DNA from: a virus | IMG/VR virus record: IMGVR_UViG_3300045988_113040 | Location: 1-32,972 of that record | Reading direction: 5' to 3' (one strand) | DNA: 32,972 bases | Shown: one piece after another, positions 3,809-27,602 of the stretch | Numbering within the stretch: position 1 is the first letter of the stretch | How the letters are laid out: each line of letters opens with the position of its first letter | Notes under the pieces: model-generated | Database searches by the model: none | Seen by the model: only the letters and a program-made list of their open reading frames with translations | What the model was told of the DNA's origin: nothing | Translations under genes and position numbers: made by a program

Positions 3809-3809
3809 C

Positions 3810-6922: not shown

Positions 6923-6994
6923 CACCATCCACACATATGGGCGGCGGCAACGCCGTCCATCCACTGATTGAACGTAACAACGAAAGGAATTGAG

Positions 6995-7591
6995 ATGGGT
7001 GCAAAGCAGTCTTCCGCAAACGTAACATTCTCCAAGCCGGGCACCAGTGCCAACAAGTCCGGTTATATTTGGGTCGCCCCATTGGGCACCGCCCTCCCCA
7101 CCAACGCCACTACCGAACTGGATGCGGCGTTCGTCGGCCTTGGCTATCTGTCCGAAGACGGTCTGACCGAACCGGCATCCCTCACCGCAGGAGACGATAT
7201 TGTGGCCGCTGGTGGCGATACGGTCGCACAGGCCGACCCGACGTTCTCCAAGACGTGGACGGGCACTTGCATCGAAGCCCTGAACGAAGACCTGATTAAG
7301 GTCGCCTACGGTTCAGCCAACGTGACGGTCGAACAGGCGTCCTCGGCAAAGGATGGCTCTATCACCGTCAAGGAGCAGGCTGGCGAACTGGAGCATCACG
7401 TCATCGTCATCGACGAAATGCTCAAGGGCGGCCGCAAGCGCCGTAACGTGATGACCGATGCTACCTTCCTCCTCACCGGCGACATCAGCCACGTGCATAC
7501 GGCTCTCGTGAACTTCGAGTTCACCATCAACGCCTATCCGACCGCCACCCAACCGGCACAGACCCAGTACATCACCATCCCAAAAGCGTAA
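6995..7591 (+). CDS. Major tail (tube) protein
   Basis: ATG 6995 with GAAAGGAA upstream. The sequence WVAPLGTALPT...FVGLGYLSEDGL is typical of TP901/phi13-type tail tube proteins. Confidence 0.75.
   Translation: MGAKQSSANVTFSKPGTSANKSGYIWVAPLGTALPTNATTELDAAFVGLGYLSEDGLTEPASLTAGDDIVAAGGDTVAQADPTFSKTWTGTCIEALNEDLIKVAYGSANVTVEQASSAKDGSITVKEQAGELEHHVIVIDEMLKGGRKRRNVMTDATFLLTGDISHVHTALVNFEFTINAYPTATQPAQTQYITIPKA
7579..7585 (+). promoter_or_regulatory. -1 programmed frameshift slippery heptamer C CCA AAA
   Basis: Fits X XXY YYZ in the tube protein frame (ATC CCA AAA GCG TAA). The -1 frame is open to 7944. Confidence 0.55.
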
Positions 7592-8969: not shown

Positions 8970-11900
8970 ATGGCAAAGGGCAGCATCGCAACCGCATGGA
9001 TACGGGTACTCCCATCATTGGAAGGCCTACAATCCGCATTGGTGAAAGCCAGCAAGGGCGCGGTGCTCACCCCCACCGTCCAACCAAAAATGTCAGGGAC
9101 GGAAAGCCGCATGTTCAAAGACAGCGGCACCGGCCTGTCATCCATCTTCTCAGGCTCGTTCGCCAAGAACCTCAACCTGCAAGGCGGTGTGAAGGGTGCG
9201 CTCAACGGCGTGTTCGCATCCTTCACCACAGGCGGACAGCGTTCCGCCAACGCCTTCGGCAACAGTTTCAGCAACCTCGACATCGGCAAATACCTGAACA
9301 CGGCGGCAGCCGTCGCCGGAATCGTATCAGTCTCCCACGCCGTCAAGAACGTGACCTCCAACGTCATCGAACTCGGCAACCAGTGGGGTCAAACCACCGC
9401 CATGCTGAAGAACGCGGTAGGCGACGCGGGCGACTATAAGACCTCTCTCGAAGATTCGCTGAAATATGCGAACGAGGTCGGCGTATCCACGGATGATTTC
9501 GTCCAGTCGGCATCCCGACTGCGCACGCTCGCGCCAGAAGTCGTAACCAATTACGGCGATGCGGCCAAGTTCACGAAACTGCTCGACATGAACATGGTCA
9601 GCACTGGCGCGTCCACTCAGGAAGCGTCCAGTGCCATGCGCCAGATTACACAGGCATTGGGCAAAGGCATCGTGAACGGCGATGAGTTGAATTCCATCAT
9701 GGAGAACTCGCCGCAAATCGCCCGAATGCTCGCCAAGCATCTCAACGTGTCCGTAGGCGAACTGAAACAGTTGGGCAAGGAAGGCTCCATCAGCGGCCAA
9801 GCCCTCTACGATACGGTGCTTGAAAACGCGGACGCCATCGAAAAGCAGTTCGACGCCATGCCCGTAACCGCAGACCGCGCATGGAACAGCATCAAGAACA
9901 CGGTCGGCGCAAGGTCGGCGGAAGCCGCCACGGCATTGTCCGCGAACCTCGGCAAAGCGCTGACCGCAATCTCCGATTCCGGCATGGCCGCCACCATAGG
10001 CGAAATGCTCGCAGGATTCGTGCCATTGTCGAACGCGGCCGCCACGTTGGCCTCGACGTTCGTCAACCAGCTCACACCAGCCGTCAACAAGGCATTCGAC
10101 CCGCAGCAGATAGAACGGTTCCTCGCACCGTTGACGAACCTTATCAGCGCCAACTCGCAGAATGTCAACATGCTGTCCAGTCTGGGAGATGTCCTCAACA
10201 CGGTAGGAACCATCGGAACCACCGTCTTCAGCCTCATGGTCGCTACGAACGACAGGTTCGCCTCCCGAATCCCGTTCATCGGCACCGCACTGGTCGGCGT
10301 GAAGAACGTGCTTATCGGATTGGGTTCGTCCTTCACGAACGCCTTCGGCAACGCCATATCCGCATCCTCCATCGTCATCGACAAGCTTGCCAGCGTGGCG
10401 GACGCCATGTCGAAAAGCGTCGACGAATCCATTAAGGTCGAAAACGCGCTCGGAAGGTTCAACGTCGCATACATTGACCTGCAGGATGATGCTCTCGGCT
10501 TCGGAGCCGACGCGGCCAAAGGATTCGCCATGGTGCAGGGCGCGGCAGAAAACCTGCGCAACGGCGTCGGACAGGTGTCCGGTAACATTTCCCTGCTGCG
10601 TTCCGGCCTGAACCAGATGGGCGATGCGGCAGAATCGTTGCCGCCCGAATTCCTGAAAGCCTTCGAAACGTTGAGTACGCAGGTGGACGTGGCGTCCGGC
10701 CAGAAGGCTCCGAAGCTCATTCAGGCGTTCAGGGACATTCGCATGGCCGCGGACGCCATCATAGTGGACTCCACTGCGTACAAGACGCTGGACTTGGCCG
10801 CACGGGACGCCGACATCTACCGCGACAAGCTCACGCAGGTCGGACGCGAACTCAAAGACCTCACCGGCCTGAACATTCCGAACGTGTTCCTCCCCTTGGT
10901 CGGCTCTGCAGTACAGGCGTCAGACCAAGCGATGATGGCATTCGGCAACCTGAAAACGGGACTCGCGAACATGGGTCACGATTTTACGAATGCTTGGAGT
11001 TTCGTCGGCGACGATTTCAAGGCGCTCGCCAACAGCATTTCCGACTCGTTCGCAACGAGGATTGAAGTGTTGAAGGCGGATGTCGAATCCGGGTTCGCCA
11101 TCATGGTGTCGAATGTGAAAGGCAAGGCGTCCGAATTCAAGACGGCGTTCGCGGAAATGATGGACACGACTGGCATCGGCGACGTCGTATCGAAGGTTTC
11201 AGGCGCATTCGACACCATGGTGGAAGGCGTGAAGTCGAAGGCGTCCGCCCTTGGCTCCATCCTGTACGAACCGTTGCAGGGAATGTCGGAAATCATTTCC
11301 AATGAGTTCGGCGGCAAGAATCCGTTCGCCCCGCTGGCCTCCGCCGCGAAGACGGTCAGCACCGGATTGAAGAGCACGTTCGGCGGAGCCGTCTCACGTC
11401 TCACGGGACGTTTCGCACCGTTCGCCGCCTCAGGAAAGGCCGCGTTCAATGCGGTCGGCTCCGCGGCGCTGAAAGTGTCTTCCGGCGCGTTGAAAGGTTT
11501 CGGCGCAGTCATGAATGGAGTCGGCGCGGCAATCGGCAAGATTGGCGGCATCGCATCATCCTTGGGCGTGACGGGCGCATTGTTCACCGGCCTGACTACA
11601 GGCTTCCAAACCCTATTCAAGCTCGACCCGTCCCAGATGACAGGCAAGTTCGACGAATGGCAGAAAAACCTCGACAATACGCTTACCGGCATCCAAACGA
11701 AACTGCCAGCCATGGCGAGCGCGTTCGCCGCAGCCCTACCGCAGATGGTGGCGAGCATCACCGCCGCATTGCCGGGCATCGCCAACGCGTTCATGAGCGT
11801 CGGACAGACGCTCGCACCAGCGTTGATGACGATACTGCCGCAAATCACCCAAGCGTTCTCCGACATGTTCGCCCAACTGCCCGCTTTCATCGCCACCTAC

Positions 11901-12971
11901 GGCCAGCCGATGCTGGAATCGTTCGGCACGCTGTTCGCCACACTCGCCGGACAGATTCCGTCGCTCATGACCTCACTCGGTCAGTCGTTGGTGGCCGGTA
12001 TTCAGGCCGCATTCAGCGCCATCAGCGACAATAGCGCGGCGATTGCCGGATTCGTCAGCGGATTCGGCGCATCATTGGCTTCCGGCATCCAAACGTTGGG
12101 TTCCACCGTGGTGGCCGCGCTACCGTCCATCGGACAGAGCATCGCCACCGCACTGCCGACGCTGATTCCAGCCTTGATGTCCGCCATCACCAGCGTGATA
12201 ACCTCACTGGCCGCAGCACTGCCGGGCATCGCCGTAGCCATCATCAACCAGCTGCCAGCCGTCATCGGCGGCTTGGTGACCGGCATCATCAACGGTCTGC
12301 CGATGCTGTTGAACGCCTTCGTCAGCATTGTGACCAGCATCGCCGCGAACTTCCCGAGCATTTTCATGGCCGTCGTTCGCGCGATTCCGGCGATTATCTC
12401 TAACATCGCCCAACCGTTCGCCGGATTGGGTGGTCAGATTCTTGGCTTCATCAGAAGCATTCCGGACAAAATCATGGACCTGTTCGCCGATGCCGGCTCG
12501 TGGCTGCTGGACTCCGGCGCGGCGTTGATGGACGGTTTCAAACAGGGTATTCTCAACGCGGTCGAAAACGTGAAGAGCGCGGTGAAGGGCGCGTTGCAGA
12601 AGGTTCGAGACTTCTTCCCGTTCTCTCCTGCTAAGGTCGGCCCGTTCTCCGGCTCCGGCTACACGTCCGTGTCTGGCGAGCATCTTATGCGTGACTTCGG
12701 CAAGGCCATCGGCGCTCAAGGCACGTTCGTGCGCGGTCAGGTCGATGACGTGCTGAGTTCGTTGGATTTCGACCAAATCAGTCCATACGACTTTGGCGTG
12801 GTGTCGAAGCCGCGGCTTACCGACTATACTGGTAAGGTAGCGGCGGCACAGCCCACTGGCGGCGTCCACATCGACAATGTGGTCGCAAGCCCGTTGAGCG
12901 ACGTGGAACTGGTGGCCCGCCGATTCGGATACGCTTTGAACAATGAGATGATTGGAAGTGTCAGACCTTGA
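8970..12971 (+). CDS. Tape measure protein
   Basis: 1333 aa, Ala/Gly/Ser-rich. Contains the tape-measure motif NGDELNSIMENSPQIARMLAKHLNVSVGELKQLGKEGSISG. Confidence 0.9.
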   Translation: MAKGSIATAWIRVLPSLEGLQSALVKASKGAVLTPTVQPKMSGTESRMFKDSGTGLSSIFSGSFAKNLNLQGGVKGALNGVFASFTTGGQRSANAFGNSFSNLDIGKYLNTAAAVAGIVSVSHAVKNVTSNVIELGNQWGQTTAMLKNAVGDAGDYKTSLEDSLKYANEVGVSTDDFVQSASRLRTLAPEVVTNYGDAAKFTKLLDMNMVSTGASTQEASSAMRQITQALGKGIVNGDELNSIMENSPQIARMLAKHLNVSVGELKQLGKEGSISGQALYDTVLENADAIEKQFDAMPVTADRAWNSIKNTVGARSAEAATALSANLGKALTAISDSGMAATIGEMLAGFVPLSNAAATLASTFVNQLTPAVNKAFDPQQIERFLAPLTNLISANSQNVNMLSSLGDVLNTVGTIGTTVFSLMVATNDRFASRIPFIGTALVGVKNVLIGLGSSFTNAFGNAISASSIVIDKLASVADAMSKSVDESIKVENALGRFNVAYIDLQDDALGFGADAAKGFAMVQGAAENLRNGVGQVSGNISLLRSGLNQMGDAAESLPPEFLKAFETLSTQVDVASGQKAPKLIQAFRDIRMAADAIIVDSTAYKTLDLAARDADIYRDKLTQVGRELKDLTGLNIPNVFLPLVGSAVQASDQAMMAFGNLKTGLANMGHDFTNAWSFVGDDFKALANSISDSFATRIEVLKADVESGFAIMVSNVKGKASEFKTAFAEMMDTTGIGDVVSKVSGAFDTMVEGVKSKASALGSILYEPLQGMSEIISNEFGGKNPFAPLASAAKTVSTGLKSTFGGAVSRLTGRFAPFAASGKAAFNAVGSAALKVSSGALKGFGAVMNGVGAAIGKIGGIASSLGVTGALFTGLTTGFQTLFKLDPSQMTGKFDEWQKNLDNTLTGIQTKLPAMASAFAAALPQMVASITAALPGIANAFMSVGQTLAPALMTILPQITQAFSDMFAQLPAFIATYGQPMLESFGTLFATLAGQIPSLMTSLGQSLVAGIQAAFSAISDNSAAIAGFVSGFGASLASGIQTLGSTVVAALPSIGQSIATALPTLIPALMSAITSVITSLAAALPGIAVAIINQLPAVIGGLVTGIINGLPMLLNAFVSIVTSIAANFPSIFMAVVRAIPAIISNIAQPFAGLGGQILGFIRSIPDKIMDLFADAGSWLLDSGAALMDGFKQGILNAVENVKSAVKGALQKVRDFFPFSPAKVGPFSGSGYTSVSGEHLMRDFGKAIGAQGTFVRGQVDDVLSSLDFDQISPYDFGVVSKPRLTDYTGKVAAAQPTGGVHIDNVVASPLSDVELVARRFGYALNNEMIGSVRP

Positions 12972-13801
12972 GCACCATAACCGTCACCGTGGGCGACATC
13001 ACCTTACATGGCGACGCAGGATATGATTTCACGCTAACCTCCATCAGCGGGTTCGATGACCTGCCGTCCGCCAAAACCGAGCAGGACGCTTGGCCTAGGG
13101 CAGACGGCAACGCCATGCCCGGCACCACCTATTATGACGGGCGCACCATCACCGTCGAAGGCTATTATGCTACGTCTTCGGTGGAAGACACCGATTTGAT
13201 GATGCGCCGCCTCCGTGGCATGGCCGGACGTTTGGTGACGGTGACGGTGCAGAAAGGCAACGCAACCGCCTTGCATTGCGACGCGGAAGTACGGTCCATG
13301 ACCGTGGACGAATACCGGTATCGTGGCAAGGCTGCGTTTCAAATCGGCCTTCTGGCACCATCCCCATATCTGCTCGCACCATTACGGGCGGCCACCACTG
13401 GCGTGCCGACCGATGGCGTCGGCATTCTCGACCCGCTGACCGCCCCGTTGACGGAAGGCGAAGTGGGCAATCCGGGACGAGTCGCCATCACCGGCTCCGG
13501 TTTCGCGCCGACGCATCTTGTCGTGAAAATCGGAGGCGGACTGTCCGAAGGTGTACGCATCCACTGCGTCGAAACCGGCGAAGCCATCGAATTCCACCGT
13601 CAAATCAACCCCGACGAAACGATGGTGTTCGACTTCGACGATGAGCGAGTCCTGTTTCAGAACCAGTCGGATTTGAGCATGTTCCTGACCGAAGAGAACT
13701 GGTTCCGCCCAACCGGAGACTGCACCATCCAGTTCACGCCATTGGGCGTCCAATCCGGTACACCTACCATGACTGTCGAATGGAATGAGGCGTGGCGATG
13801 A
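12968..13801 (+). CDS. Distal tail protein (Dit-like)
   Basis: It lies directly after the TMP. TTG overlaps the TGA. 277 aa, beta-rich. Confidence 0.6.
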   Translation: MSTITVTVGDITLHGDAGYDFTLTSISGFDDLPSAKTEQDAWPRADGNAMPGTTYYDGRTITVEGYYATSSVEDTDLMMRRLRGMAGRLVTVTVQKGNATALHCDAEVRSMTVDEYRYRGKAAFQIGLLAPSPYLLAPLRAATTGVPTDGVGILDPLTAPLTEGEVGNPGRVAITGSGFAPTHLVVKIGGGLSEGVRIHCVETGEAIEFHRQINPDETMVFDFDDERVLFQNQSDLSMFLTEENWFRPTGDCTIQFTPLGVQSGTPTMTVEWNEAWR

Positions 13802-14985
13802 AAGTGTATCTTGCCGACCTGCTGACCGGACGCCGCATCATCCCATTGCCGCATGTTTCCGCAGAGTGGGAGATGAAGCTGAACGATACGGATTCACTGA
13901 CTGTGAAGGTGCCGATTTACGCAAGCTCGGATGACACGAGGTTGCAGTATGTCGCGAACGACGCCCGTATGCTTGACCTGCGCAATACCGCCGCCATCGG
14001 CAAGACGGTCATGGTGGCTGAGGATGACGGGCTTGCCGTGGGCGGCGTGCTCATGCGCCGCGAATATGACGCTGATTCGGGAACGCTCACCCTCGTCGCG
14101 TCGGGCATGTGGACGTATTTTGACCATAGGACGATACTGCCGGCGAAGGCGAAAGGCAAGAGCCTTATCAGACCGGACGGTTCGCCCGACCCTCAATATG
14201 ACACTTCCTATAGGAACGTGACTTGGAATACGGTCGCACGCAATCTCGTCGAACAGGCGATGAGCTGGCCCCATAGCAGCGTGCCAGTCGTGTTGGAGGC
14301 TCCTGAAACCGGCAAGTCCGAAGCGAACTATCAGGCGGTTGACCTCAACTATGTTGGCGAAGTGCTGACGAACATCACGAACCATCAGAACGGCTGCGAC
14401 ATCGGATTCTTCCCCATGCGCACCGCTGACGGATTGGGTTACGAATGGCATATGAAGACCGGGCATCCGCTGCTTGGCAGCGAAACCCACTATTTCAGCG
14501 CTTCAGCCATGCAACCGGGCATCGCCTCGTTGTCCGCCACTGATGACGGCGACAAGCTCGCCTCCCTGCAATGGTTCACGTCGGGCAAGTCGGACGATAA
14601 GACGCTCGTCGCTTCAGCCTATACGGACATTCTGGAGAAGGCCGGAGCGCCAGTCTGGGAGAGCGTGGATTCCAGCCATTCGACGGTCAAATTGCAGAAC
14701 ACGCTTCAGGCGTATGCGAACGAGGCTGCTGCTATCTACTGGCAGCCGGTGTCGTCCACTGAGGCGAAAGTGCATCGCGGATATCTGCATTCCGTGAATC
14801 AGACGCTCGCCAACTATACGGTAGGTGATTACATTCGGTTCACGACGAAAGGCGACTGGTATTATGTGGATGGCGCGCACACGCGGCGCATCACCGGCAT
14901 CAAAGCCGATGAAAGCTCGAATTGGATTACGTTCACGTTGGGTGACGTGTTCGACGGTGTGAAAGTGACGGTGGACAATGGTTGA
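13798..14985 (+). CDS. Tail tip/minor tail protein (Tal-like)
   Basis: ATGA overlap with the Dit stop. Call rests on position and size (395 aa). Confidence 0.5.
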   Translation: MKVYLADLLTGRRIIPLPHVSAEWEMKLNDTDSLTVKVPIYASSDDTRLQYVANDARMLDLRNTAAIGKTVMVAEDDGLAVGGVLMRREYDADSGTLTLVASGMWTYFDHRTILPAKAKGKSLIRPDGSPDPQYDTSYRNVTWNTVARNLVEQAMSWPHSSVPVVLEAPETGKSEANYQAVDLNYVGEVLTNITNHQNGCDIGFFPMRTADGLGYEWHMKTGHPLLGSETHYFSASAMQPGIASLSATDDGDKLASLQWFTSGKSDDKTLVASAYTDILEKAGAPVWESVDSSHSTVKLQNTLQAYANEAAAIYWQPVSSTEAKVHRGYLHSVNQTLANYTVGDYIRFTTKGDWYYVDGAHTRRITGIKADESSNWITFTLGDVFDGVKVTVDNG

Positions 14986-15739
14986 CGAGATTGTCGTGCA
15001 TCAGGGAGAGTCGGCTGACGGCATCGCTCCAGTGGCCGAAGACGACGAAATGGTCATCGACGTGAAGAATCCAGCTCAGGCCACCAACAAGCTCGTAGCC
15101 ACGTTGAACGAGTATGGTCGCCGGTTGCGTGAACTGGAAAGGCCGTCAGGCTCCCAGCTTACTCAGGCTATTCAGAAGGTGTTGGACATCAGTGAGAACA
15201 TCGACCAGACGGTGACCGCATCAATCAACAGGAACTCGTATGACCGTGCGACCATCGACCAAAAGTGCAATGCGTGGAATTGGGGCGTCCTATCGCAGGG
15301 ACGCGGCGGCACGAATACGACGAACGCCTATGCCAACCTGTTTTCCGTAGGCTCGTGGCGTGCCGTGTGGGCATTGTCCGATGGCACGTTGGGAACGGCC
15401 CAGTCATCCCGCAAGGTGAAGCAGGATTTCATGATGCCGGACATCACGTTGGAACAGATGCGTGCCGTCGATTGGACTCTCTACCGTTACATCGACGACG
15501 TGAACCAGCGCGGCGATAGTGCGAACGTGCATTTGGGCATGATTGCCGAAGATTTGGACGATAACGGCTTGGGCTTGTTCGTCGAGTATAATGATGATTA
15601 CGAGCCGTGCGGCATCAACTATCCGATGCTCGGCGTGTGGGCGATACATGAGGCCCATCTCGCCCATGACCGTATCGACGAATTGGAATCGCGCCTGAAG
15701 GCGCTGGAAGGAAAGATTGATAATGGCATTGAGGAATAG
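14978..15739 (+). CDS. Tail fibre protein with a C-terminal intramolecular chaperone (peptidase S74-like) domain
   Basis: SSRKVKQDF...HLGMIAEDL...INYPMLGVWAIHEAHLAHDRIDELESRLKALE follows the S74 autoproteolytic chaperone pattern. Confidence 0.65.
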   Translation: MVDEIVVHQGESADGIAPVAEDDEMVIDVKNPAQATNKLVATLNEYGRRLRELERPSGSQLTQAIQKVLDISENIDQTVTASINRNSYDRATIDQKCNAWNWGVLSQGRGGTNTTNAYANLFSVGSWRAVWALSDGTLGTAQSSRKVKQDFMMPDITLEQMRAVDWTLYRYIDDVNQRGDSANVHLGMIAEDLDDNGLGLFVEYNDDYEPCGINYPMLGVWAIHEAHLAHDRIDELESRLKALEGKIDNGIEE

Positions 15740-16673
15740 TATCTTCGCAGTGTCCGGGAAAGCGTCGTTTATGGATGCGCGACGCGACATGAGCGGCCTG
15801 TTCGTCTGCGATAAGACCACGATGCTGCCGATTGCCGGCATTCTCGACCGTTCGCAGGACAATCTCGTCACCGGTAACAGTAATTCCATGAGCGTGACGG
15901 TGCATCCGTTCAACGCGATATTGAACCGTTATGGCGCGCTGCTTATCCAGAATGATGGAAACGTGAACGTGCAGCTGGCTGCGGCTCCGTCCGCTAACTC
16001 GCGTATCGACGTCGTGTATGTGAAGCAGAACGAGACGCGCTCGCCAATGTCGGATAGTTCGGACGTTCCGGCGTTCGGTGTGGTTAAGGGTACGGCTGCC
16101 GCCGTGCCGGTCGCACCGGCTGTTCCGGCTGGCGCTTTGGCTTTGGCACAGGTGCTGCTTCCGGCTGGCGTGTCGAACACGGCTGCGTCCGGCGTGGTCA
16201 TCACGCAGACGTATATTGGTGCGGCCATGAAGGGCGACATGCTGCGGGTACAGACTTCCGACCAGCGTGACGCTCTGACTGGTGTGCCTGAAGGCACGCT
16301 GCTGCATAATGTGGCCGATAATTGCGATTATGTCAGAAAAGGTGGTAAGTGGCGTGGGTGGAACATGCCGTGGAGGGATATTCACCTCGACAAGAATACC
16401 GCGAACGTGTGGGCTTCCAATGGTACTGCGCACATCTACGTTCAGACTACTGACATCGACCTTACCGGCTGGGGGTCGTATGTGACCGTCGCGCATGTGA
16501 GCAACAGCGCCTTCTGTCCAGACATCCAACAAGGCATTAATGCGTGTACTGGAAATAGCTATTTCCCGACGTTTTTGGGCATCTACCCCGATGGAGATGT
16601 GAAAATCGGATACGCTGGCGGTCAGGTTGGAAAACGTTCCGTATTGTCCGTGCTCACTTACAATATCGGCTAG
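15723..16673 (+). CDS. Receptor-binding/minor tail protein, with a constant part to 16338 and the current variable C-terminus at 16339..16673
   Basis: ATG 15723 with GGAAGGAAAG 7 nt upstream. It is the last tail gene and contains the left inverted repeat in frame (ADNCDYVR). Confidence 0.55.
   Translation: MALRNSIFAVSGKASFMDARRDMSGLFVCDKTTMLPIAGILDRSQDNLVTGNSNSMSVTVHPFNAILNRYGALLIQNDGNVNVQLAAAPSANSRIDVVYVKQNETRSPMSDSSDVPAFGVVKGTAAAVPVAPAVPAGALALAQVLLPAGVSNTAASGVVITQTYIGAAMKGDMLRVQTSDQRDALTGVPEGTLLHNVADNCDYVRKGGKWRGWNMPWRDIHLDKNTANVWASNGTAHIYVQTTDIDLTGWGSYVTVAHVSNSAFCPDIQQGINACTGNSYFPTFLGIYPDGDVKIGYAGGQVGKRSVLSVLTYNIG
16314..16338 (+). repeat. Left arm of a perfect 25-bp inverted repeat, GCCGATAATTGCGATTATGTCAGAA
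   Basis: Exact reverse complement occurs at 17020..17044. Internal dyad is ATAAT-TGCG-ATTAT. Confidence 0.9.
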
Positions 16674-17019
16674 GCTCTCCACTCCCTGCACTGCCATCCT
16701 CCGGTCACGCCGGAGTATATGCTGTTAGTGTTGCCCAGCATGATGATTTCACCATTGGGGCGTACGAAATTGCACCAGTTGGCGTTGACTGCAGCCACTA
16801 CACCAAAGTTGATGGCGGTGGGACTATCCCCGTAGGGTCGCCATCCGGCCGGAACGGTTTCATTCGCAAGAGCGTGATTCTGTTGGTTTGAACTATCGTA
16901 TTTTACACTGCCGCCCACGATGACCGTATCCCATTCGCGTGAGAGCCACCACGTATCCTTGGTGAATGGCGCCTTCACGCTAATGATGTCCCTCGTCTTG
17001 GCCCACTTGCCGCTTGGAG
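16339..17019. mobile_element. Putative invertible segment (G-segment-like) carrying two convergent alternative RBP C-termini
   Basis: Bounded by the 25-bp inverted repeats. Both cassettes are in the same codon phase relative to the repeat, and their stops overlap in CTAG at 16670..16673. Confidence 0.5.
16670..17019 (-). CDS. Startless alternative RBP C-terminal cassette (about 116 codons) on the opposite strand
   Basis: Minus frame reads ADNCDYVR-TPSGKWAKTRDIISVKAPFTKDTWW... The track starts it at GTG 16978. No start codon or SD lies at or before the repeat. Confidence 0.5.
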
Positions 17020-17044
17020 TTCTGACATAATCGCAATTATCGGC
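17020..17044 (-). repeat. Right arm of the 25-bp inverted repeat
   Basis: The plus strand TTCTGACATAATCGCAATTATCGGC is the reverse complement of 16314..16338. Confidence 0.9.
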
Positions 17045-17050
17045 TATAAT
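17022..17050 (+). promoter_or_regulatory. Candidate promoter for the lysis cassette giving a leaderless or near-leaderless mRNA
   Basis: CTGACA, 17 nt spacer, TATAAT. ATG 17059 lies 8 nt after the -10 with no SD. Confidence 0.4.
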
Positions 17051-17058
17051 AGTGCCAT

Positions 17059-17424
17059 ATGAGCACCGACATCATCGTCGCCCTAGTGACCGGATTATGC
17101 GCCATCGCGGTCGCGGCGGTCACTTGGGCGCAAAACAGACGCGGCGACCTGAGCGAAGCCTACAGACGACTCTCGGAAGCCCAATTGAACATGCAGCGGG
17201 AAGTCGACAGGCAGGACGAGAAGCTGGCCGCATTCATTCATGAACGCGACGCACTCCGCTATCAGGACGATTTGAAAACCTCCTACATTCGGGCAATGGG
17301 ACATTGGCTTGGCAAACTCTGCCAAGTGTTGGACCCAGAGTTTTTGAAACAGCATCCGAAGCCACGACTGCCGGACGGTCTTCGCGATACAATAGAACCG
17401 TTGGACATCAACGAAAGGACATGA
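17059..17424 (+). CDS. Membrane-anchored coiled-coil protein (lysis-associated, 121 aa)
   Basis: ORF track. N-terminal TM helix IIVALVTGLCAIAVAAVTWA followed by a charged helical region. It lies directly upstream of the holin. Confidence 0.55.
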   Translation: MSTDIIVALVTGLCAIAVAAVTWAQNRRGDLSEAYRRLSEAQLNMQREVDRQDEKLAAFIHERDALRYQDDLKTSYIRAMGHWLGKLCQVLDPEFLKQHPKPRLPDGLRDTIEPLDINERT

Positions 17425-17427
17425 TTC

Positions 17428-17709
17428 ATGTTTGAAAAGGATTTTTGGGTTGACACGCTTGAACGTGCAATCCGCACCGCATGTCAGGCGGCATTGTCGG
17501 CTGGCGTGGTCGGTGGCGTCGGCCTGTTTCAGGTCGATTGGCTGAACGTAGCTGGTATCGCGCTTGTCGCAGCCGTCGCGTCCGTGTTGACGTGCGTGGC
17601 GTCCTCCGGCAAGACGGATGCCATCAGTCCGGCTTCGCTCGCCACTCCATCCAAGAGTCTGGTGACGGGCAAGCATGTTGCAGGCAATGAAACGGAGGTT
17701 TCTGAATGA
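17428..17709 (+). CDS. Holin (r1t-like)
   Basis: MFEKDFWVDTLERAIRTACQAAL...VDWLNVAGIALVAAVASVLTCVAS matches the r1t-holin pattern. It lies directly upstream of the endolysin. Confidence 0.6.
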   Translation: MFEKDFWVDTLERAIRTACQAALSAGVVGGVGLFQVDWLNVAGIALVAAVASVLTCVASSGKTDAISPASLATPSKSLVTGKHVAGNETEVSE

Positions 17710-18629
17710 GGTTTGTGGATATCAGCAATTGGAAGGCTGACATTGACGTTTCCAAGATTGACGCCGATGGCGTGGTAGTCCAGTGTACTTGGGGTGCTGG
17801 CGAACTGACGACGGACAATGGTCTGGTCGAGTCCGTGTGGACTGGTGCGGATGCGAAGATTCAGGCCGCTGCCAAGCGTGGCCTTGCGGTCGGCTACATG
17901 CATTACATTCGTGGCGTTGGCGCTTCGGAGGAGGCGTATTTCTTCGCCGGGAACACCAAGGGCTATCTTGGCAAGTTCGTGCCGTGCGTTGACTGGGAGC
18001 AGGCCGATAACGCCGCTTGGGGCAATCGAGCCTATTTGGATGAATTTCTCTACCAGTATATTCGACTGACCGGCGTGAAACCGCTCGTGTACGCGCAGCG
18101 TTCCGAAATCCCGTTCGTCAAGGACATTTGCACCAAGCATGATTGTGGTATTTGGGAGGCGTGCTATGCTTCCATGGATGCGGTCGGCTGGCAGGATGCG
18201 GATTCCATTTGGTCGTATGTGGCGTATCCGATGCGCCAGTACACGTCGAACGGTCATATCGGCGGTTATGCCGGTTCGCTTGATTTGAATTATTTCGCCG
18301 GTGACAAGGCTGCATGGGACAAGTATGCGTGTGTCGGCGCGAACACTCCGGTGAATCCGGCTCCGTCCATCATCGAATCTCCCGCTCCGACCGTAGTGGC
18401 GTGCACGTATGATGTGGCCGTGGATGCAATGAACGTGCGTACCGCACCGTCCGTGAACGCTGATGTTGCAGCCCAGTATGGGCGTGGACAGCAGGTTGTG
18501 CTCGACGGTTGGGGTGCTTATGCTGACGGCTATCTGTGGGGACGCTATGTGGGCGCTTCTTCGGGCGAATACCGTTATGTGGCCGTTGGCACCGAGTCCG
18601 GTGACGAATGGTATTTGATAATTCGCTGA
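17706..18629 (+). CDS. Endolysin with an N-terminal GH25 muramidase and a C-terminal SH3b-like wall-binding domain
   Basis: MRFVDISNWKADID...VGYMHY...VDWE is the GH25 pattern. The C-terminus VAVDAMNVRTAPSVNADVAAQYGRGQQV is SH3-like. Confidence 0.75.
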   Translation: MRFVDISNWKADIDVSKIDADGVVVQCTWGAGELTTDNGLVESVWTGADAKIQAAAKRGLAVGYMHYIRGVGASEEAYFFAGNTKGYLGKFVPCVDWEQADNAAWGNRAYLDEFLYQYIRLTGVKPLVYAQRSEIPFVKDICTKHDCGIWEACYASMDAVGWQDADSIWSYVAYPMRQYTSNGHIGGYAGSLDLNYFAGDKAAWDKYACVGANTPVNPAPSIIESPAPTVVACTYDVAVDAMNVRTAPSVNADVAAQYGRGQQVVLDGWGAYADGYLWGRYVGASSGEYRYVAVGTESGDEWYLIIR

Positions 18630-22136: not shown

Positions 22137-22278
22137 GATTGTCTGTCTTCACGGCGTCTTCCACCATGCCGACGATGCCCTTCACCATGCCGATAATGAT
22201 AAGGATTACCGCCGTGCCTCCCATGACCGACAGGCAGATGACGAGCATATACAGGAAGTTCATCATCAGTTCATGCAT
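22117..22278 (-). CDS. Small membrane protein (53 aa)
   Basis: Hand translation gives MHELMMNFLYMLVICLSVMGGTAVILIIIGMVKGIVGMVEDAVKTDNHDEEND. GGAG lies 8 nt upstream. It overlaps both neighbours. Confidence 0.4.
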   Translation of the reverse strand: MHELMMNFLYMLVICLSVMGGTAVILIIIGMVKGIVGMVEDAVKTDNHDEEND

Positions 22279-23173
22279 TCTTCTTCTCCTTCACGATGCT
22301 CAATCTGATGGCTTTCGAGGTTTTCTGGAATGGTTTCAGGTCGATTTCCGGATGCTGGCCGAACAGTGTCGCATAGTCGGTTGTCGTGCGTGACGTTTCG
22401 ACGAGCCGTGCGACATGGCCGTCACAGTGGATGCGCTCGCCGGGATGGTCTGACAGCCACATGGCGAGCCGTTCCTTGGCTCTCTCGTACCGTTCCTTCG
22501 CCTCCAACACTTCTGACATCAGCGGAAGGCCTTCTTCCGAATCATTGTCATTCTTGTAGGCGTCGTACCACTTGTCCACCACGTCCTGTTCCATGATGTC
22601 GCTGACGAATACGATGTCCAATGTTTTCTTGATTTGTTCGGTGATGGCTTCTGGGGATAGTCGCTCCCAGTCGGTCGGACGTTGCGCGTAGATGATTTCG
22701 GCGAATTTCGCTCCGACCATGCGTGCTTCGAGTTGTGCCTGTGCCGAATACTGGCGGTGCTGCATTGCCGATAGGAAAGCGTATGACGGTTTGCTCCCGG
22801 TTTTCACTTCCACCGTATGCAGTACGCCGTTGCGGTCACGGTAGGAGGCGTCCAATGAGACGTGCATTCTGCCGTCCGTGTAGAAGCTGTTGTCATACCA
22901 TGCGAGCTGTCCTGCCGCGAGGTCGGCGAGTGGCGTGTTCTTCGACGCCACGTCGAGTTGCAGGTGTTCGGCATACAGTTTGACCACCATCGGCTCCCAT
23001 ATGCTGCCGAATTGGATGGCGCTCTGCACAGCCGGAACGTCTGGCGGGGGGGAGGGCAGTTCGCCGGATGCGATGAAATGCGCGAGACTGGATGCGCCGA
23101 CCGTGTTTTTGCGGGCTTCGAGCCATTGTTCGCGCGTGTCGTAAACGTGGTATTCTAGATTCTTTTCACCCAT
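22271..23173 (-). CDS. YqaJ/lambda-Exo-like recombination exonuclease (PD-(D/E)XK)
   Basis: ATG 23173 with GGAG 7 nt upstream (the track starts at 23212). Motifs are VGASSLAHF and LDASYRD...VEVKTG. Confidence 0.6.
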   Translation of the reverse strand: MGEKNLEYHVYDTREQWLEARKNTVGASSLAHFIASGELPSPPPDVPAVQSAIQFGSIWEPMVVKLYAEHLQLDVASKNTPLADLAAGQLAWYDNSFYTDGRMHVSLDASYRDRNGVLHTVEVKTGSKPSYAFLSAMQHRQYSAQAQLEARMVGAKFAEIIYAQRPTDWERLSPEAITEQIKKTLDIVFVSDIMEQDVVDKWYDAYKNDNDSEEGLPLMSEVLEAKERYERAKERLAMWLSDHPGERIHCDGHVARLVETSRTTTDYATLFGQHPEIDLKPFQKTSKAIRLSIVKEKKNA

Positions 23174-23535
23174 TTCGGTTCTCCTTCGGAATTGATTGTG
23201 AGTAGTTTGCACTGCCTGTTGGTCATGTCCCGCCAGTCTTTGACGGAAAGCAGCCAGTCAACGCCTTTCAGCCCGTAGACGAGCATGATGTTGGCGTTGT
23301 GTGCGGCCAGTTGCGCGAGTTCCCTGCGCTGGTCTTCGCTTGGCCGTCCTACGGTGCGTTTTAGTTCGATGAACCATGTGTTGCCGAACATGTCAACGAC
23401 GGTGATGTCGGGGAATCCGTTGCGGGAGCGGCCTTCGGTTTTCTGTACGTACCAGCCGCGTTTTTCCAAGCCTTTTATGAGGCGGGCTTGAATGTCGGCT
23501 TCCAACGGTTCCTGTTTTCTACTGTTCAGGCGCAT
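23155..23535 (-). CDS. VRR-NUC domain nuclease
   Basis: EADIQARLIKGLEKRGWYV...GFPDITVV...FIELKRTVGRPSEDQ. Confidence 0.75.
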   Translation of the reverse strand: MRLNSRKQEPLEADIQARLIKGLEKRGWYVQKTEGRSRNGFPDITVVDMFGNTWFIELKRTVGRPSEDQRRELAQLAAHNANIMLVYGLKGVDWLLSVKDWRDMTNRQCKLLTINSEGEPKWVKRI

Positions 23536-24531: not shown

Positions 24532-24990
24532 TTACTTGAATTCTTCGGTGAGGGAAGGGGAGGGGAGGGGGGAGGATGATTTTCCATCATCGTCGGCAAT
24601 GGTTGTCAGGCCGAGCAGGTGAATCAGCCCGTAACGCCTGTAGTAGGTTTCGAAGCTACCAACTTGTTGGGCTGCCGCAGCCGGATACGTGTAGCTGCTG
24701 CTCAACGCTTCACCGTTTTTCACCATTTCCATGAGGTTCGTGCCATCATGGTCTATTTCGTAGACAGCTACGGTGAGCGTGTTGTACACTGTCGGCATGT
24801 CGGTTTCCGCGCCGACAATCTCGCTCGCTCCCGCCGCGGTCCATCCCAGTCCGTTGTCGGCCATGGCCTGTTTGACCAGTGTCCAAATGTCGTTCAACGT
24901 GGCGTACTTGTACCCGTAGCCTTCGGTGGACCGTTTGGCCGCGCCTACCGCCTGTTGCACTGCCGCTATGCTGGTGAGTATGTCACTCAT
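24532..24990 (-). CDS. ERF-family single-strand annealing protein
   Basis: YGYKYATLNDIW...QQVGSFETYYRRYGLIHLLGL...DDDG. ATG 24990 is preferred over the track GTG 24999 on SD spacing. Confidence 0.6.
   Translation of the reverse strand: MSDILTSIAAVQQAVGAAKRSTEGYGYKYATLNDIWTLVKQAMADNGLGWTAAGASEIVGAETDMPTVYNTLTVAVYEIDHDGTNLMEMVKNGEALSSSYTYPAAAAQQVGSFETYYRRYGLIHLLGLTTIADDDGKSSSPLPSPSLTEEFK
24552..24572 (+). other. G-quadruplex-type motif GGGAAGGGGAGGGGAGGGGGG on the template strand of the ERF gene 3' end
   Basis: Four G-runs of at least 3 with 1-2 nt loops, read directly. Confidence 0.5.
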
Positions 24991-25354
24991 AATATCCACG
25001 CTCCTTCAGTTCGTTGTCGATTGCTTCGTCGGTCACGCACATGCATATGGCCTCCACCACCATTTTGTTGAAGTCCGAATGTGTTTGCGGCAACCATTCG
25101 TCGCGAACATTGCGTAGAATTTCATCAGCGCGTTCCAAACCGATTTTTCCGCCCAAATCTTTAACGGTATCGGCCATACATGAGGCGCGGCCTTTCAAAT
25201 ACGCCTCGAACGCGTAACGGTAGTCCGTATCGTTCAATTCTGCGGTTATGGCTACGATGGCGGGTACCGATTCACGGTATTCGGTGAGAGTGTAGGTGTT
25301 CACATCATGCAAGAGCTCTTTGGCTCTTTTGTCAAAATATTCGAATGGTTTCAT
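24983..25354 (-). CDS. Hypothetical protein (123 aa)
   Basis: ORF track. AAGAGG upstream of the ATG. Confidence 0.6.
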   Translation of the reverse strand: MKPFEYFDKRAKELLHDVNTYTLTEYRESVPAIVAITAELNDTDYRYAFEAYLKGRASCMADTVKDLGGKIGLERADEILRNVRDEWLPQTHSDFNKMVVEAICMCVTDEAIDNELKERGYYE

Positions 25355-25991: not shown

Positions 25992-27602
25992 TCAGTCGTC
26001 AACGCGCGTGGCGGCAAGCCGCTTACGAATATGCGCGTAACGCTCGTTCAGTTCGGGACGCCCGGCACGCTTGTACAGGCGCAACGCGGTACGTTCCAAC
26101 GGTTCCACAGTCGGCTTGCCGTGGGATGCGCGTGCGATACGACTGCGGATGATATTCTCGACTACCCGCATGGCCGCCACGTCATGAAGGCGCAGATATT
26201 CGTAGCCAGCCCAAATGTCCCCACAACTGTGCGCGTGGTATAGGTGGAAAGAGTTGAAAGCGGGGGCCCTGTCGCCCGTCATAATCATGGTTGTAGCTAT
26301 CTGTACGTAGCGGTGCAATGGGCGTAGGTTGCGGGACGGGAGCGCGTAGCAGAGTTCCGGGGCCGACAAACGCTCCTCAACAAGCTTGCGGACACGCTCG
26401 CGGCGTTCCTCATGCCTACGGTATTCAAGCGTGGCGAGAGTCGTGTCGCCATGACTGTAGCGTGCGATACGCGAAGCCTCAACGTTGGCTTTGACGTTAC
26501 GACGGATTTCTGCCGCGCGCTTCTGACGTTCCCGTTCCTCTTCGGCTTTCCGTGCCGCCTTGACGCTACGTGCGGCGGCGAGTCGTTCGTCAAGCGTGCG
26601 AAGGGGTGTATCGGTCACGTTGTCGGCCATGCATGAGGCATACCGTCCAATGAGACTCGCCGATACCGTGCCGCGGGGGTGCTTCTCGAAAAACCGCCAC
26701 ATGGCGCGTATCCACTTGACGGCCGGAACAAGCTTATTAGCGGTACCTTCATACCAACAATCGAACGTGCGCAATTCAATGGTATCCGTATGTTCGTCGT
26801 TGACGGCAGTGTGCTTGCCGGTGTAATCCCCGTGGTTGAGAGAGCACCAATAGTCGTCGCCGAGATGGCGCATGTTGAGTAGGCGGCATTGAGCCGCGTC
26901 CAGCCCACGTAGCGCCCAATACCAACGGCTCGCACATTGGTTTGGCGTGCGCGCCACGTGGATATGACCGCCCGAGTTCTCGCCATATTCACGGATGTCT
27001 TCGACAATTCGTTGCAAGTCGGGCAGCATGGACATGTTAAGGATATTGGTTTGTAGTTCCACCCCGTTCCGCTCTAGCGATTGGTCTTTGTCCCAACCGG
27101 CGATAATGTCAGAGTCTATGACGTTTCCCACGAAGTCATCGGACAGTTCTGACTCAAGTTCAATCTCAACGCCAAACGTGAACTGACTGCCGCCCACAAA
27201 CGTGTAAGGGTAGGTGTATTCGTCGTCCTTGCCCGTTGCAAACATTTCATTGACACGGTGACGTGGGCAGTAGTAAGAGTTTTCCGAACCGCCGCAATAC
27301 TCGCACAGCACAGCGTTACAACTGTAGTTGTCACAGCTATAGTAGTCGCTGCCGTCTAGGTCAATCGGCGTGCCGCATTGCGCGCACCATTCTGACTCGT
27401 AGTCAAAATCGGCGGCGGTATCGACGTGGCGCAGCTCACCGTTATGTAAACTGATATAGAAGTCGCTGCCGATTGCAACGCACTTGGCGGTTCCATCGGG
27501 CCACTTGGAACGGTATGCCTTAAACAGGCGCTGCGCTTGTCCATTACGTTCAATCCACTCGCAATATGGTTCGCCGCCGAGTATCGCTATCCTGTCAGCC
27601 AT
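25992..27602 (-). CDS. Amidoligase_2-like (glutamine-synthetase-type) ligase with an N-terminal Cys-rich zinc module and a long charged helical C-terminal extension
   Basis: FTFGVEIELES...DKDQSLERNGVELQT...ENSGGHIHVAR. Cys cluster is CAQCG...CDNYSCNAVLCEYCG...YYCPRH. GAGGTGA lies upstream of the ATG. Confidence 0.6.
   Translation of the reverse strand: MADRIAILGGEPYCEWIERNGQAQRLFKAYRSKWPDGTAKCVAIGSDFYISLHNGELRHVDTAADFDYESEWCAQCGTPIDLDGSDYYSCDNYSCNAVLCEYCGGSENSYYCPRHRVNEMFATGKDDEYTYPYTFVGGSQFTFGVEIELESELSDDFVGNVIDSDIIAGWDKDQSLERNGVELQTNILNMSMLPDLQRIVEDIREYGENSGGHIHVARTPNQCASRWYWALRGLDAAQCRLLNMRHLGDDYWCSLNHGDYTGKHTAVNDEHTDTIELRTFDCWYEGTANKLVPAVKWIRAMWRFFEKHPRGTVSASLIGRYASCMADNVTDTPLRTLDERLAAARSVKAARKAEEERERQKRAAEIRRNVKANVEASRIARYSHGDTTLATLEYRRHEERRERVRKLVEERLSAPELCYALPSRNLRPLHRYVQIATTMIMTGDRAPAFNSFHLYHAHSCGDIWAGYEYLRLHDVAAMRVVENIIRSRIARASHGKPTVEPLERTALRLYKRAGRPELNERYAHIRKRLAATRVDD

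Follow-up and report, generated by a model that had tools for sequence, protein, structure and literature searches.

The 32,972-nucleotide stretch of DNA analyzed here (IMG/VR record IMGVR_UViG_3300045988_113040, positions 1 to 32,972; hereafter the window) is the complete, ~33-kb genome of a virulent-type Bifidobacterium siphophage, and within the gene for its putative receptor-binding protein (RBP) lies a 681-bp segment that is bounded by inverted copies of a short repeat and that holds two alternative C-terminal coding cassettes. Comparison with related phages makes it nearly certain that inversion of this segment is real and has recurred in the phage family, and the evidence supports an invertible RBP cassette that works without a phage invertase. 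From the sequence of the repeats, we think that the inversion is probably carried out in trans by the host enzymes XerC and XerD, acting at pseudo-dif sites that are built in frame into the RBP gene.

A first-pass annotation of this DNA had described a 25-nt repeat in the gene together with its exact reverse complement downstream, and both the sequence and the coordinates are confirmed. The repeat, GCCGATAATTGCGATTATGTCAGAA, occupies 16314-16338 on the plus strand and its exact reverse complement occupies 17020-17044, forming a perfect 25-bp inverted repeat (IR) that can be extended to 32 nt at 91% identity and that leaves 681 nt between its arms. The 17-nt core of the repeat occurs in exactly two places in the window, even when three mismatches are allowed, against an expectation of 0.03 from shuffled sequences. 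Both arms are read in the same codon phase as Ala-Asp-Asn-Cys-Asp-Tyr-Val-Arg (ADNCDYVR); the plus-strand arm is followed by 111 codons up to TAG 16671-16673 and the minus-strand arm by 116 codons up to another TAG, the two frames meeting tail to tail in the tetranucleotide CTAG at 16670-16673, all as originally described. It was equally correct that the minus-strand cassette has no start codon at or upstream of the repeat: the frame upstream of the right arm has nine open codons (*CRCSYGTII-ADNCDYVR) with no ATG, GTG, or TTG, and the earliest possible start is GTG 16978, which gives a 102-amino-acid open reading frame (ORF). The Gly-Lys-Trp (G-K-W) motif that is common to both variants and the dyad ATAAT-TGCG-ATTAT within the repeat were also found as reported. 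The parts of the locus are as follows.

15723..16313, plus strand: constant N-terminal part of the RBP, 197 codons, from ATG 15723 (alternative start TTG 15717, ORF 15717-16673)
16311..16338, plus strand: left pseudo-dif site, 28 bp, with the perfect part of the repeat at 16314-16338; XerC arm GTGGCCGATAA at 16311-16321, central region TTGCGA at 16322-16327, XerD arm TTATGTCAGAA at 16328-16338
16339..16673, plus strand: cassette A, the C-terminal head domain that is now expressed, 111 codons and TAG
16670..17019, minus strand: cassette B, the silent alternative C-terminal domain, 116 codons and TAG, in frame with the right site
17020..17047, minus strand: right pseudo-dif site, in inverted orientation; in plus-strand reading, XerD arm TTCTGACATAA at 17020-17030, TCGCAA at 17031-17036, XerC arm TTATCGGCTAT at 17037-17047
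16339..17019: invertible segment, 681 bp, between the arms, with strand exchange predicted inside the two central regions

The first-pass annotation had proposed that this cassette inverts inside the RBP gene and that the opposite orientation should be looked for in related genomes, and there it is indeed present. Window positions 16314-17044 align in reverse to positions 24964-24234 of the Bifidobacterium pseudocatenulatum phage BP742P1 (83.9% identity over 731 nt), while the flanks at 14900-16338 and 17020-17500 align forward to the same genome, which has the same 32-nt repeat and the same 681-nt spacing. In all six B. pseudocatenulatum isolates, BP742P1 and BP677P1 among them, the homolog of the window's silent cassette (82% amino acid identity) is fused to the RBP N terminus on the coding strand, and the homolog of the window's expressed cassette sits silent. 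A wider, ascertainment-free set of relatives, collected through the N-terminal domain, comprises 73 IMG/VR loci and the isolates; across the 73 loci, the constant N-terminal part is 86 to 94% identical. Their cassettes fall into families A (...WRGWNMPW...TYNIG), B (TPSGKWAKTRD...GGWQCREWRA), and C (KWKFEGLFTE...SFSFQLA), and the genomes with two intact cassettes (n = 28) have them in the expressed/silent arrangements A/B (nine genomes), B/A (eight), A/C (six), and C/A (five). On a neighbor-joining tree of 4.5 kb of flanking sequence, the orientations are interleaved, and in the closest pair of opposite orientation (L156 and L159), the 8.65 kb upstream are 98.6% identical and a 756-bp IR-bounded segment is reversed. 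The reversal relative to BP742P1, the recurrence of both orientations, and the interleaved tree thus show that inversion has happened many times in this family.

The silent cassettes are not free of selection. The ratio of nonsynonymous to synonymous substitution rates (dN/dS) of the A, B, and C cassettes is ~0.3 both when silent and when expressed (silent cassettes, 0.29 to 0.42; cassette B, ~0.29). Since the values for silent cassettes resemble those for expressed ones, silent cassettes must meet selection often enough, and so be expressed now and then.

The second cassette is lost or degraded in 41 of 69 classified relatives. In the isolate BA720P3 (L005, 18711-19160), the second cassette is gone and both repeat arms have decayed; here and in L139, L167, L171, L179, L181, L183, L189, L199, and L206, the cassette has been deleted and a decayed remnant of the right site is kept. 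These remnants end in an immediate stop (ADG* or ADNCD*), and the switch has been lost repeatedly.

The clue to the enzyme lies in the repeat itself. In Escherichia coli, dif, the natural substrate of XerC and XerD, reads GGTGCGCATAA-TGTATA-TTATGTTAAAT. The phage repeat can be parsed in the same manner into an XerC arm, a 6-bp central region, and an XerD arm (11+6+11), as GCCGATAA-TTGCGA-TTATGTCAGA-A. For bifidobacteria, the predicted dif sites are GCCGATAATGTACGTTATGTCAGATTTC in B. adolescentis ATCC 15703, GCCGATAATGTACGTTATGTCAGATTAG in B. longum NCC2705 and DJO10A, and TCCGATAATGTACGTTATGTCAGATTAG in B. longum subsp. infantis and three B. animalis genomes, the Frankia seed being CACGCCGATAA-TGCACA-TTATGTCAAGT (Kono et al. 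2011, PMC3025954). Parsed likewise, the B. adolescentis/B. longum prediction becomes GCCGATAA-TGTACG-TTATGTCAGA-T, with TTATGTCAGAT as its XerD arm, and that of B. animalis and B. longum subsp. infantis becomes TCCGATAA-TGTACG-TTATGTCAGA-T (PMC3025954). The phage arms are identical to these predicted host arms at 8/8 and 10/10 positions (10/11 with the last base), six third-codon positions included, and the spacer TTGCGA matches the host TGTACG at only one position in six. The pattern CCGATAA-N6-TTATGTCAGA occurs exactly twice in the window, and shuffled sequences yield 0.00 occurrences with up to two mismatches. High-GC, chromosome-like contigs in IMG/VR carry TTAGCCGATAA-TGTA(CG/GA/CA/TC)-TTATGTCAGAT, in agreement with the predicted host consensus, and TTAGCCGATAA also fits the right phage site (ATAGCCGATAA) in the outer bases of its XerC arm. 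The internal dyad, taken in the first pass for the mark of a recombinase crossover site, can accordingly be given a more specific reading, as the inner palindrome of a dif-type XerC/XerD site.

Over positions 4 to 22 of the left site, genomes with two cassettes have a mean of 0.36 mismatches (n = 28; 20 perfect) and single-cassette genomes a mean of 2.02 (n = 41; 11 perfect), a difference with a Mann-Whitney p of 1e-5, relatedness among the genomes being uncorrected. Decay is concentrated in the ATAA of the XerC arm and in the spacer and runs toward GC-rich synonyms, the DYVR part persisting, and the AT-rich codons of the site are retained despite a genome GC content at third codon positions (GC3) of ~0.7. 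That the site decays in single-cassette genomes argues that, over and above the peptide, its DNA sequence is preserved only as long as a second cassette is present to be flipped. The spacers of the two partner sites are identical in 25 of the 28 pairs. Mapping of the crossover within the repeat was underpowered, and repeat polymorphisms showed no significant association with cassette or side; a crossover left of position 18 is placed only by anecdotal pairs, L156/L159 (position 18) and L178/L147 (position 24).

A second phage lineage carries the same arms with other spacers. Scanning viral contigs for dif-like arms with any spacer turned up this lineage (group 2, as distinct from the window phage and its relatives, group 1), which is uncultured, with genomes of ~30 kb at 54% GC. 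Its identity to the window phage is 49% for the fiber, 36% for the lysin, and ~24% for the RBP N terminus, and among isolates, honeybee phages of B. asteroides come closest to it, at 40%. The group 2 RBP has a 188-amino-acid constant part that leads into ADNAHYVR, encoded as GCCGATAA-TGCCCA-TTATGTCAGAA, and then into one of at least 10 C-terminal families, and start-less cassettes sit behind an inverted partner site. Partner spacers, which come in six variants, are identical in 17 of the 24 pairs with an intact silent cassette, where permutation expects 4.1 (P < 1e-5), and the longest uninterrupted identity between partners is often only 14 to 19 bp. Constant arms, a free 6-bp overlap that is matched pair by pair, and runs of identity too short for homologous recombination are what would be predicted for the sites of a tyrosine recombinase, and none of them would be predicted by homologous recombination. 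We judge it reasonably likely that virulent gut Bifidobacterium phages of two or more distant lineages, represented by over 100 metagenomic genomes, switch their RBP heads, in some cases as a multicassette shufflon, by means of in-frame dif copies and host XerC/XerD. The system appears to be widespread in gut Bifidobacterium phages.

Several group 2 genomes depart from the simple two-cassette layout. One of them (L288, IMGVR_UViG_3300014802_000010) has three pseudo-dif sites, all with the spacer TGCTCA, in a multicassette, shufflon-like array in which, relative to the site in the RBP gene, one of the other sites is direct and one is inverted. In L237/L276 (IMGVR_UViG_3300045988_016536; L237 8255-9704), the invertible segment includes a homolog of the window gene at 17059-17424, a transmembrane and coiled-coil protein of PHROG 1397 that is co-oriented with the silent cassette, so that flipping would reverse this gene too. 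A 100-amino-acid cassette family (...KLKRKTITF...) is always silent and never expressed in the eight group 2 genomes that have it (L280, L283, L295, L314, L325, L330, L332, and L335).

No enzyme for the inversion was found in the phages themselves. The first-pass annotation had recognized no recombinase anywhere in the 32.9 kb, and searches with Pfam and PHROGs agree, returning no serine or tyrosine recombinase, transposase, or integrase among the plausible or antisense ORFs of at least 100 amino acids in the window. Likewise, Pfam identified no recombinase in the accessory ORFs of 77 related loci, which include three complete isolate genomes; the only accessory products it recognized were a Bro-N/ANT protein and a GDSL hydrolase, the others being unknowns. 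Phyletic profiling across the relatives found no window gene that co-occurs with the two-cassette state. The annotation had left the choice among a host enzyme, the phage ERF/exonuclease module, and a new arrangement; the evidence points to the first.

The RBP gene comprises the constant N-terminal part and two head cassettes (A expressed, B silent) that lie tail to tail between inverted 28-bp sites, the sites being in frame at the neck/head junction, with the XerC arm facing outward and the XerD arm facing the cassette. In the mechanism that we propose, host XerC/XerD would, during infection, bind both sites, synapse them, and exchange strands in the central regions. The ensuing 681-bp inversion would fuse cassette B in frame to the constant part and silence cassette A, giving flipped junctions that are predicted to read GCACGCTGCTGCATAATGTGGCCGATAATTGCGATTATGTCAGAACTCCAAGCGGCAAGTGGGCC and CCCACGCCACTTACCACCTTTTCTGACATAATCGCAATTATCGGCTATAATAGTGCCATATGAGC in the window strain, and the progeny would have two receptor specificities without the aid of a phage invertase. 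The anatomy of the locus, the match of its sites to predicted dif arms, the repeated inversion among relatives, the lack of a phage recombinase, and the covariation of spacers in the second lineage are observed; that XerC/XerD catalyze the reaction, how fast the segment flips, and that host range changes are inferences. Tyrosine recombinases follow an overlap-identity rule for partner sites, and the foreign central region (TTGCGA, the same in both phage sites) would block productive recombination with the chromosomal dif; since all phage spacers differ from host spacers, recombination between phage and chromosome should be prevented. The absence of integrated copies is consistent with such a barrier: in 185,579 species-representative genomes, the 17-mer core had 94 single, scattered hits at chance level, none of them in Bifidobacterium. 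A precedent for the reaction comes from Acinetobacter plasmids, on which segments invert reversibly between pXerC/D sites that point in opposite directions and have the same spacer (PMC9947245).

Several observations weigh against this reading, and they concern the enzyme, the sites, and the tempo of the switch. With regard to the enzyme, XerC and XerD normally recombine dif only when FtsK activates them at the septum, and Pfam recognized no FtsK-independent activator (e.g., XafT/DUF3653) in the phage. The host dif sequences to which the phage arms were matched are themselves computational predictions, and that of B. pseudocatenulatum is not among them. With regard to the sites, partner spacers are mismatched despite an intact silent cassette in 3 of the 28 group 1 pairs and 7 of the 24 group 2 pairs. 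Among the two-cassette group 1 loci, 11 of 13 variants of the outer (XerC) arm adjoin cassette A, in the expressed as well as in the silent position; this skew is drawn from few cases, is unexplained, and is not what a crossover in the central region with frequent flipping would predict. The part of the XerD arm that encodes DYVR is also under protein constraint and persists in single-cassette genomes. The honeybee phage BlindUri1 (L275, MT006234, 4040-4075) has TDNDGDYVF at the equivalent neck position, but the DNA of this homolog is not dif-like there and an inverted partner is missing; the peptide motif may be older than its use as an Xer site.

The tempo is the third point. The exact 65-nt flipped left junction had no match in the metagenome contigs of the Joint Genome Institute (JGI), and a 45-nt query made of the N-terminal flank and the repeat retrieved from them only a single-cassette relative of ~85% identity. 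The window strain is itself absent from that collection, and the missing junction therefore says little. Neither the exact flipped protein (321 amino acids) nor the silent-A ORF was found by look-up in a collection of 15 billion proteins; an N+B fusion from another strain (P0123) is in the same 90% cluster, on a 1.66-kb contig with no repeat at its end. As for the coexistence of both isomers in one population, even the closest genomes of opposite orientation are ~1.4% apart upstream. Flipping could be slow, on an evolutionary rather than a per-infection timescale.

Four other explanations of the locus have to be weighed against inversion by host XerC/XerD. One is that the inversion is driven by homology, with the 25-bp repeat serving as the shortest usable homology for the ERF annealase and YqaJ-type exonuclease, for host RecA, or for template switching in replication, and with its likeness to dif being incidental. 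The machinery is at hand, as ERF, a YqaJ-like exonuclease, VRR-NUC, and a single-strand-binding (SSB)-like protein are encoded in the window and in each of the 47 relatives whose flanks are long enough; the two arms share some derived synonymous states (e.g., in L144, L184, and L196), as would result from gene conversion; and long IRs have been proposed to flip a 30-kb cyanophage segment without a dedicated recombinase (bioRxiv 10.64898/2026.02.14.705889). This explanation nevertheless leaves unaccounted for the identity of the arms with host dif at 18/18 positions, synonymous sites included, the recurrence of these arms with other spacers in the second lineage, and the partners that have only 14 bp of unbroken identity yet an identical spacer. 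The AT-rich codons kept at a GC3 of ~0.7, and their GC-rich drift once the second cassette is gone, also speak against it, and we regard it as unlikely.

We put at much the same low level the possibility that a dedicated invertase, Xer-like or other, acts in trans from a resident prophage (Rin-type), from another host locus, or as an unrecognized phage protein. There is precedent in the same host genus: Rin is an armless, XerC/D-like tyrosine invertase of bifidoprophages, and an orphan inverted locus that has no flanking recombinase has been proposed to be served in trans (Mavrich et al. 2018, PMC6109161). Several ORFs of the window are also without annotation. The Rin crossover site, TTCCCTAACCC, is however absent from the window, even with one mismatch, and the phage sites match dif itself. 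No gene tracks the two-cassette state, the 536-amino-acid orphan ORF of the window being present in 4 of 47 relatives, and the 17-mer core, as noted above, is in no Bifidobacterium species-representative genome.

It is very unlikely that the switch does not work at all, the arrangement having been left behind by rare, ancient rearrangements or by coinfecting phages that swapped cassettes at a linker that is conserved, with the minus-strand cassette a decaying remnant or a small gene in its own right. The loss or decay of the second cassette in 41 of the 69 relatives would fit, as would the failure to find the flipped junction and flipped protein of the window strain in the collections scanned. 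Automated annotation, moreover, puts a 102-amino-acid coding sequence on the silent cassette in isolates, and the first-pass annotation had itself considered that relatives might show the minus-strand ORF with a start of its own. The codon that annotators use as the internal start is, however, V, M, L, or F among the B cassettes and is not conserved. Orientation is also polyphyletic; silent cassettes keep their full length and the frame of the site, with purifying selection equal to that on expressed ones; and only genomes with two cassettes maintain the site sequence.

The weakest alternative, and one that we consider highly improbable, is that the sites are there for some other Xer reaction, be it integration into the chromosomal dif in the manner of integrative mobile elements exploiting Xer (IMEX) or the resolution of phage multimers, with inversion as a by-product; it is well established that phages exploit Xer for integration (CTXphi-type IMEX), and IMEX-like direct pairs of dif-like sites do occur in chromosomal-looking contigs, but the sites studied here are inverted, lie in frame inside a coding sequence, bracket alternative C termini, have spacers that differ from host dif at 5/6 positions, and have left no integrated copy in the genomes searched. 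The contigs just mentioned (L233, L246, and L252) are large, at 58 to 59% GC, and have two direct dif-like sites 2.3 to 4.6 kb apart, CCGATAA-TGTACA-TTATGTCAGA and CCGATGA-TGTAGA-TTATGTCAGA; the arrangement resembles an IMEX-type insertion into the chromosomal dif of a gut actinobacterium.

The label RBP, which the first-pass annotation had already used, is a reasonable one, if not proven. It is supported by matches of the gene product to PHROG 3398 and to minor tail and virion structural protein families, by the position of the gene after those for the tape measure protein, Dit, Tal, and fiber, where RBPs sit in the tail module, and by the modeled structure of cassette A. An RBP query had no match in Pfam or among PDB sequences. 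The AlphaFold (AF2) model has a predicted local distance difference test score (pLDDT) of 52 overall, with low confidence in the N-terminal 220 residues and ~80 for residues 225 to 316, which make up cassette A. With this part as the query, the top Foldseek matches were the RBP heads of lactococcal phages p2 and TP901-1 and of Listeria phage PSA (probability 0.96 to 1.0; E value 2e-3 to 1e-2), in alignments of about 95 residues. A single-sequence AF2 model of cassette B (pLDDT 33) was unusable.

The rest of the genome is that of a siphophage at 56% GC, with the late genes on the plus strand and early genes on the minus strand. It is a metagenomic scaffold (ENA ERZ28602646; source sample SAMN06328441, reads SRR5275466), and cultured relatives of it, at ~82% DNA identity, are the sewage phages BA720P3 and BA746P1 of B. 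adolescentis and BP677P1-P8 and BP742P1 of B. pseudocatenulatum. The genes that frame the locus, and a promoter-like element beside it, are as follows.

3705-5258, plus strand: large terminase
6968-7591, plus strand: tail tube
8970-12971, plus strand: tape measure protein
12968-13801, plus strand: Dit
13792-14985, plus strand: Tal-like protein
14978-15739, plus strand: fiber gene with Peptidase_S74 chaperone
15723-16673, plus strand: RBP-like gene under study
17022..17050, plus strand: promoter-like CTGACA-17-TATAAT, identified by its 11/12 match to the consensus alone
17428-17709, plus strand: holin
17706-18629, plus strand: GH25 endolysin
22271-23212, minus strand: YqaJ-type exonuclease, early gene
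24532-24999, minus strand: ERF annealase, early gene

Other early genes on the minus strand encode a dCTP deaminase, an SNF2 helicase, a VRR-NUC nuclease, and an SSB-like protein, and a primase-polymerase is likewise encoded in the window. The early region also holds an accessory ORF of 536 amino acids (25992-27602, minus strand) that has no Pfam or PHROG match and is the orphan found in 4 of the 47 relatives with enough flank. Upstream of the RBP gene, the product of the fiber gene has a C-terminal Peptidase_S74 intramolecular chaperone domain and then a coiled coil, which points to a self-cleaving trimeric fiber. The promoter-like element stops 8 nt before ATG 17059 of the next gene (17059-17424), a distance suggestive of leaderless-type organization. 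The XerD arm of the right pseudo-dif site supplies its -35 hexamer, and in L156, L159, and BP742P1, the element reads CTGACA...TAGAAT; it may be coupled to the switch, which is unproven.

We found no description of Xer-site-flanked RBP inversion in phages in the full-text literature that was searched, subscription-only papers being outside its scope. To our knowledge, host-range switching of phages by inversion is known only with a dedicated, phage-encoded invertase, and Xer hijacking is known for integration (IMEX) and for the shuffling of plasmid modules; the locus described here would unite the two. If our reading is true, a host-range determinant of a phage would for the first time be seen to phase-vary through Xer recombination, and the locus would be the first invertase-free phage inversion switch for which an enzyme can be named. 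Two 28-bp sites would suffice for a small lytic phage to acquire phase-variable receptor binding, by parasitizing an essential, and for that reason ever-present, pair of host enzymes. The question of what flips orphan invertible loci in bifidophages has been asked before (Mavrich et al. 2018, PMC6109161), and XerC/XerD is a testable proposed answer for inverted bifidophage loci that have no recombinase nearby. More generally, the lack of an invertase nearby would be a poor reason to dismiss IR-flanked cassettes, and searches for look-alikes of the host dif could reveal more switches. The system is carried by the cultured phages BP677P1-P8 and BP742P1, whose host range is possibly bistable, and the same could hold for Bifidobacterium phages engineered for microbiome editing, in which host range might be locked by spacer mutation or widened by added cassettes.

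The first-pass annotation had called the cassette G-segment-like, and this stands for the logic of the switch and falls for the class of enzyme and the type of site. The Mu G segment with Gin, the P1 C segment with Cin, and p15B with Min likewise combine a constant N-terminal exon with alternative, inverted C-terminal cassettes, with alternative host range as the predicted outcome. Those systems, however, belong to temperate phages or plasmids and have a serine invertase encoded in cis and a Fis-dependent enhancer, whereas the window phage has no invertase gene, no integrase, and sites of the dif type, with the 11+6+11 architecture of tyrosine recombinases. Sites of the gix/cix/hix type are 26 bp long, with two 12-bp half-sites around a 2-bp crossover; on inspection, the phage repeat, with its 11+6+11 architecture, is without the ..AAACC half-site consensus. 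No serine recombinase gene (resolvase/invertase domain) adjoining the cassettes was found by Pfam or PHROGs among ORFs of at least 100 amino acids.

Closer in host and in protein fold is the Rin shufflon, which inverts TP901-1-type RBP head cassettes in the same host genus, by a proposed tyrosine-recombinase chemistry (PMC6109161). The TP901-1/p2-like head fold is a shared feature, seen here in the model of cassette A only. Rin, however, is encoded beside its cassettes, in integrated prophages, and an 11-bp rix site, the crossover sequence given above, lies upstream of each cassette (PMC6109161); the window has neither a rin gene or other Phage_integrase-type protein nor, up to one mismatch, a rix site, and a Rin shufflon was rejected for it. 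The orphan locus Bb423phi2/689b-1 also has no recombinase beside it and was suggested to depend on an enzyme acting in trans, none being identified (PMC6109161); that locus is in an integrated prophage and recombines at CAGGGTTA, which, like rix, is not dif-like. Among Anabaena cyanophages, both orientations of a segment occur in close lytic relatives without a dedicated invertase, as they do here, but the segment is 30 kb long, its 400- to 700-bp, non-dif-like IRs suit homologous recombination, and no protein is switched in frame (bioRxiv 10.64898/2026.02.14.705889).

The remaining comparisons are with elements that borrow the Xer system. IMEX such as CTXphi, VGJphi, TLCphi, and the gonococcal genetic island (GGI) have dif-like sites and hijack host XerC/XerD with no recombinase of their own; they have a single site and integrate at the chromosomal dif, whereas the window phage has two inverted sites, a spacer incompatible with dif, and no integrated copies. 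The pXerC/D (pdif) modules of Acinetobacter, too, place dif-like sites on a mobile replicon, rely on host XerC/XerD, and encode no recombinase, as proposed here, but they are on plasmids and shuffle whole resistance genes, while the sites in the window mark an in-frame domain splice point in a phage structural gene (PMC9947245). The window switch has what marks such Xer-exploiting elements, namely, arms that match dif, no recombinase of its own, and a central region shared by the partner sites. In sum, while its logic is that of the G segment, its predicted enzymology would place it with the IMEX and the pdif modules.

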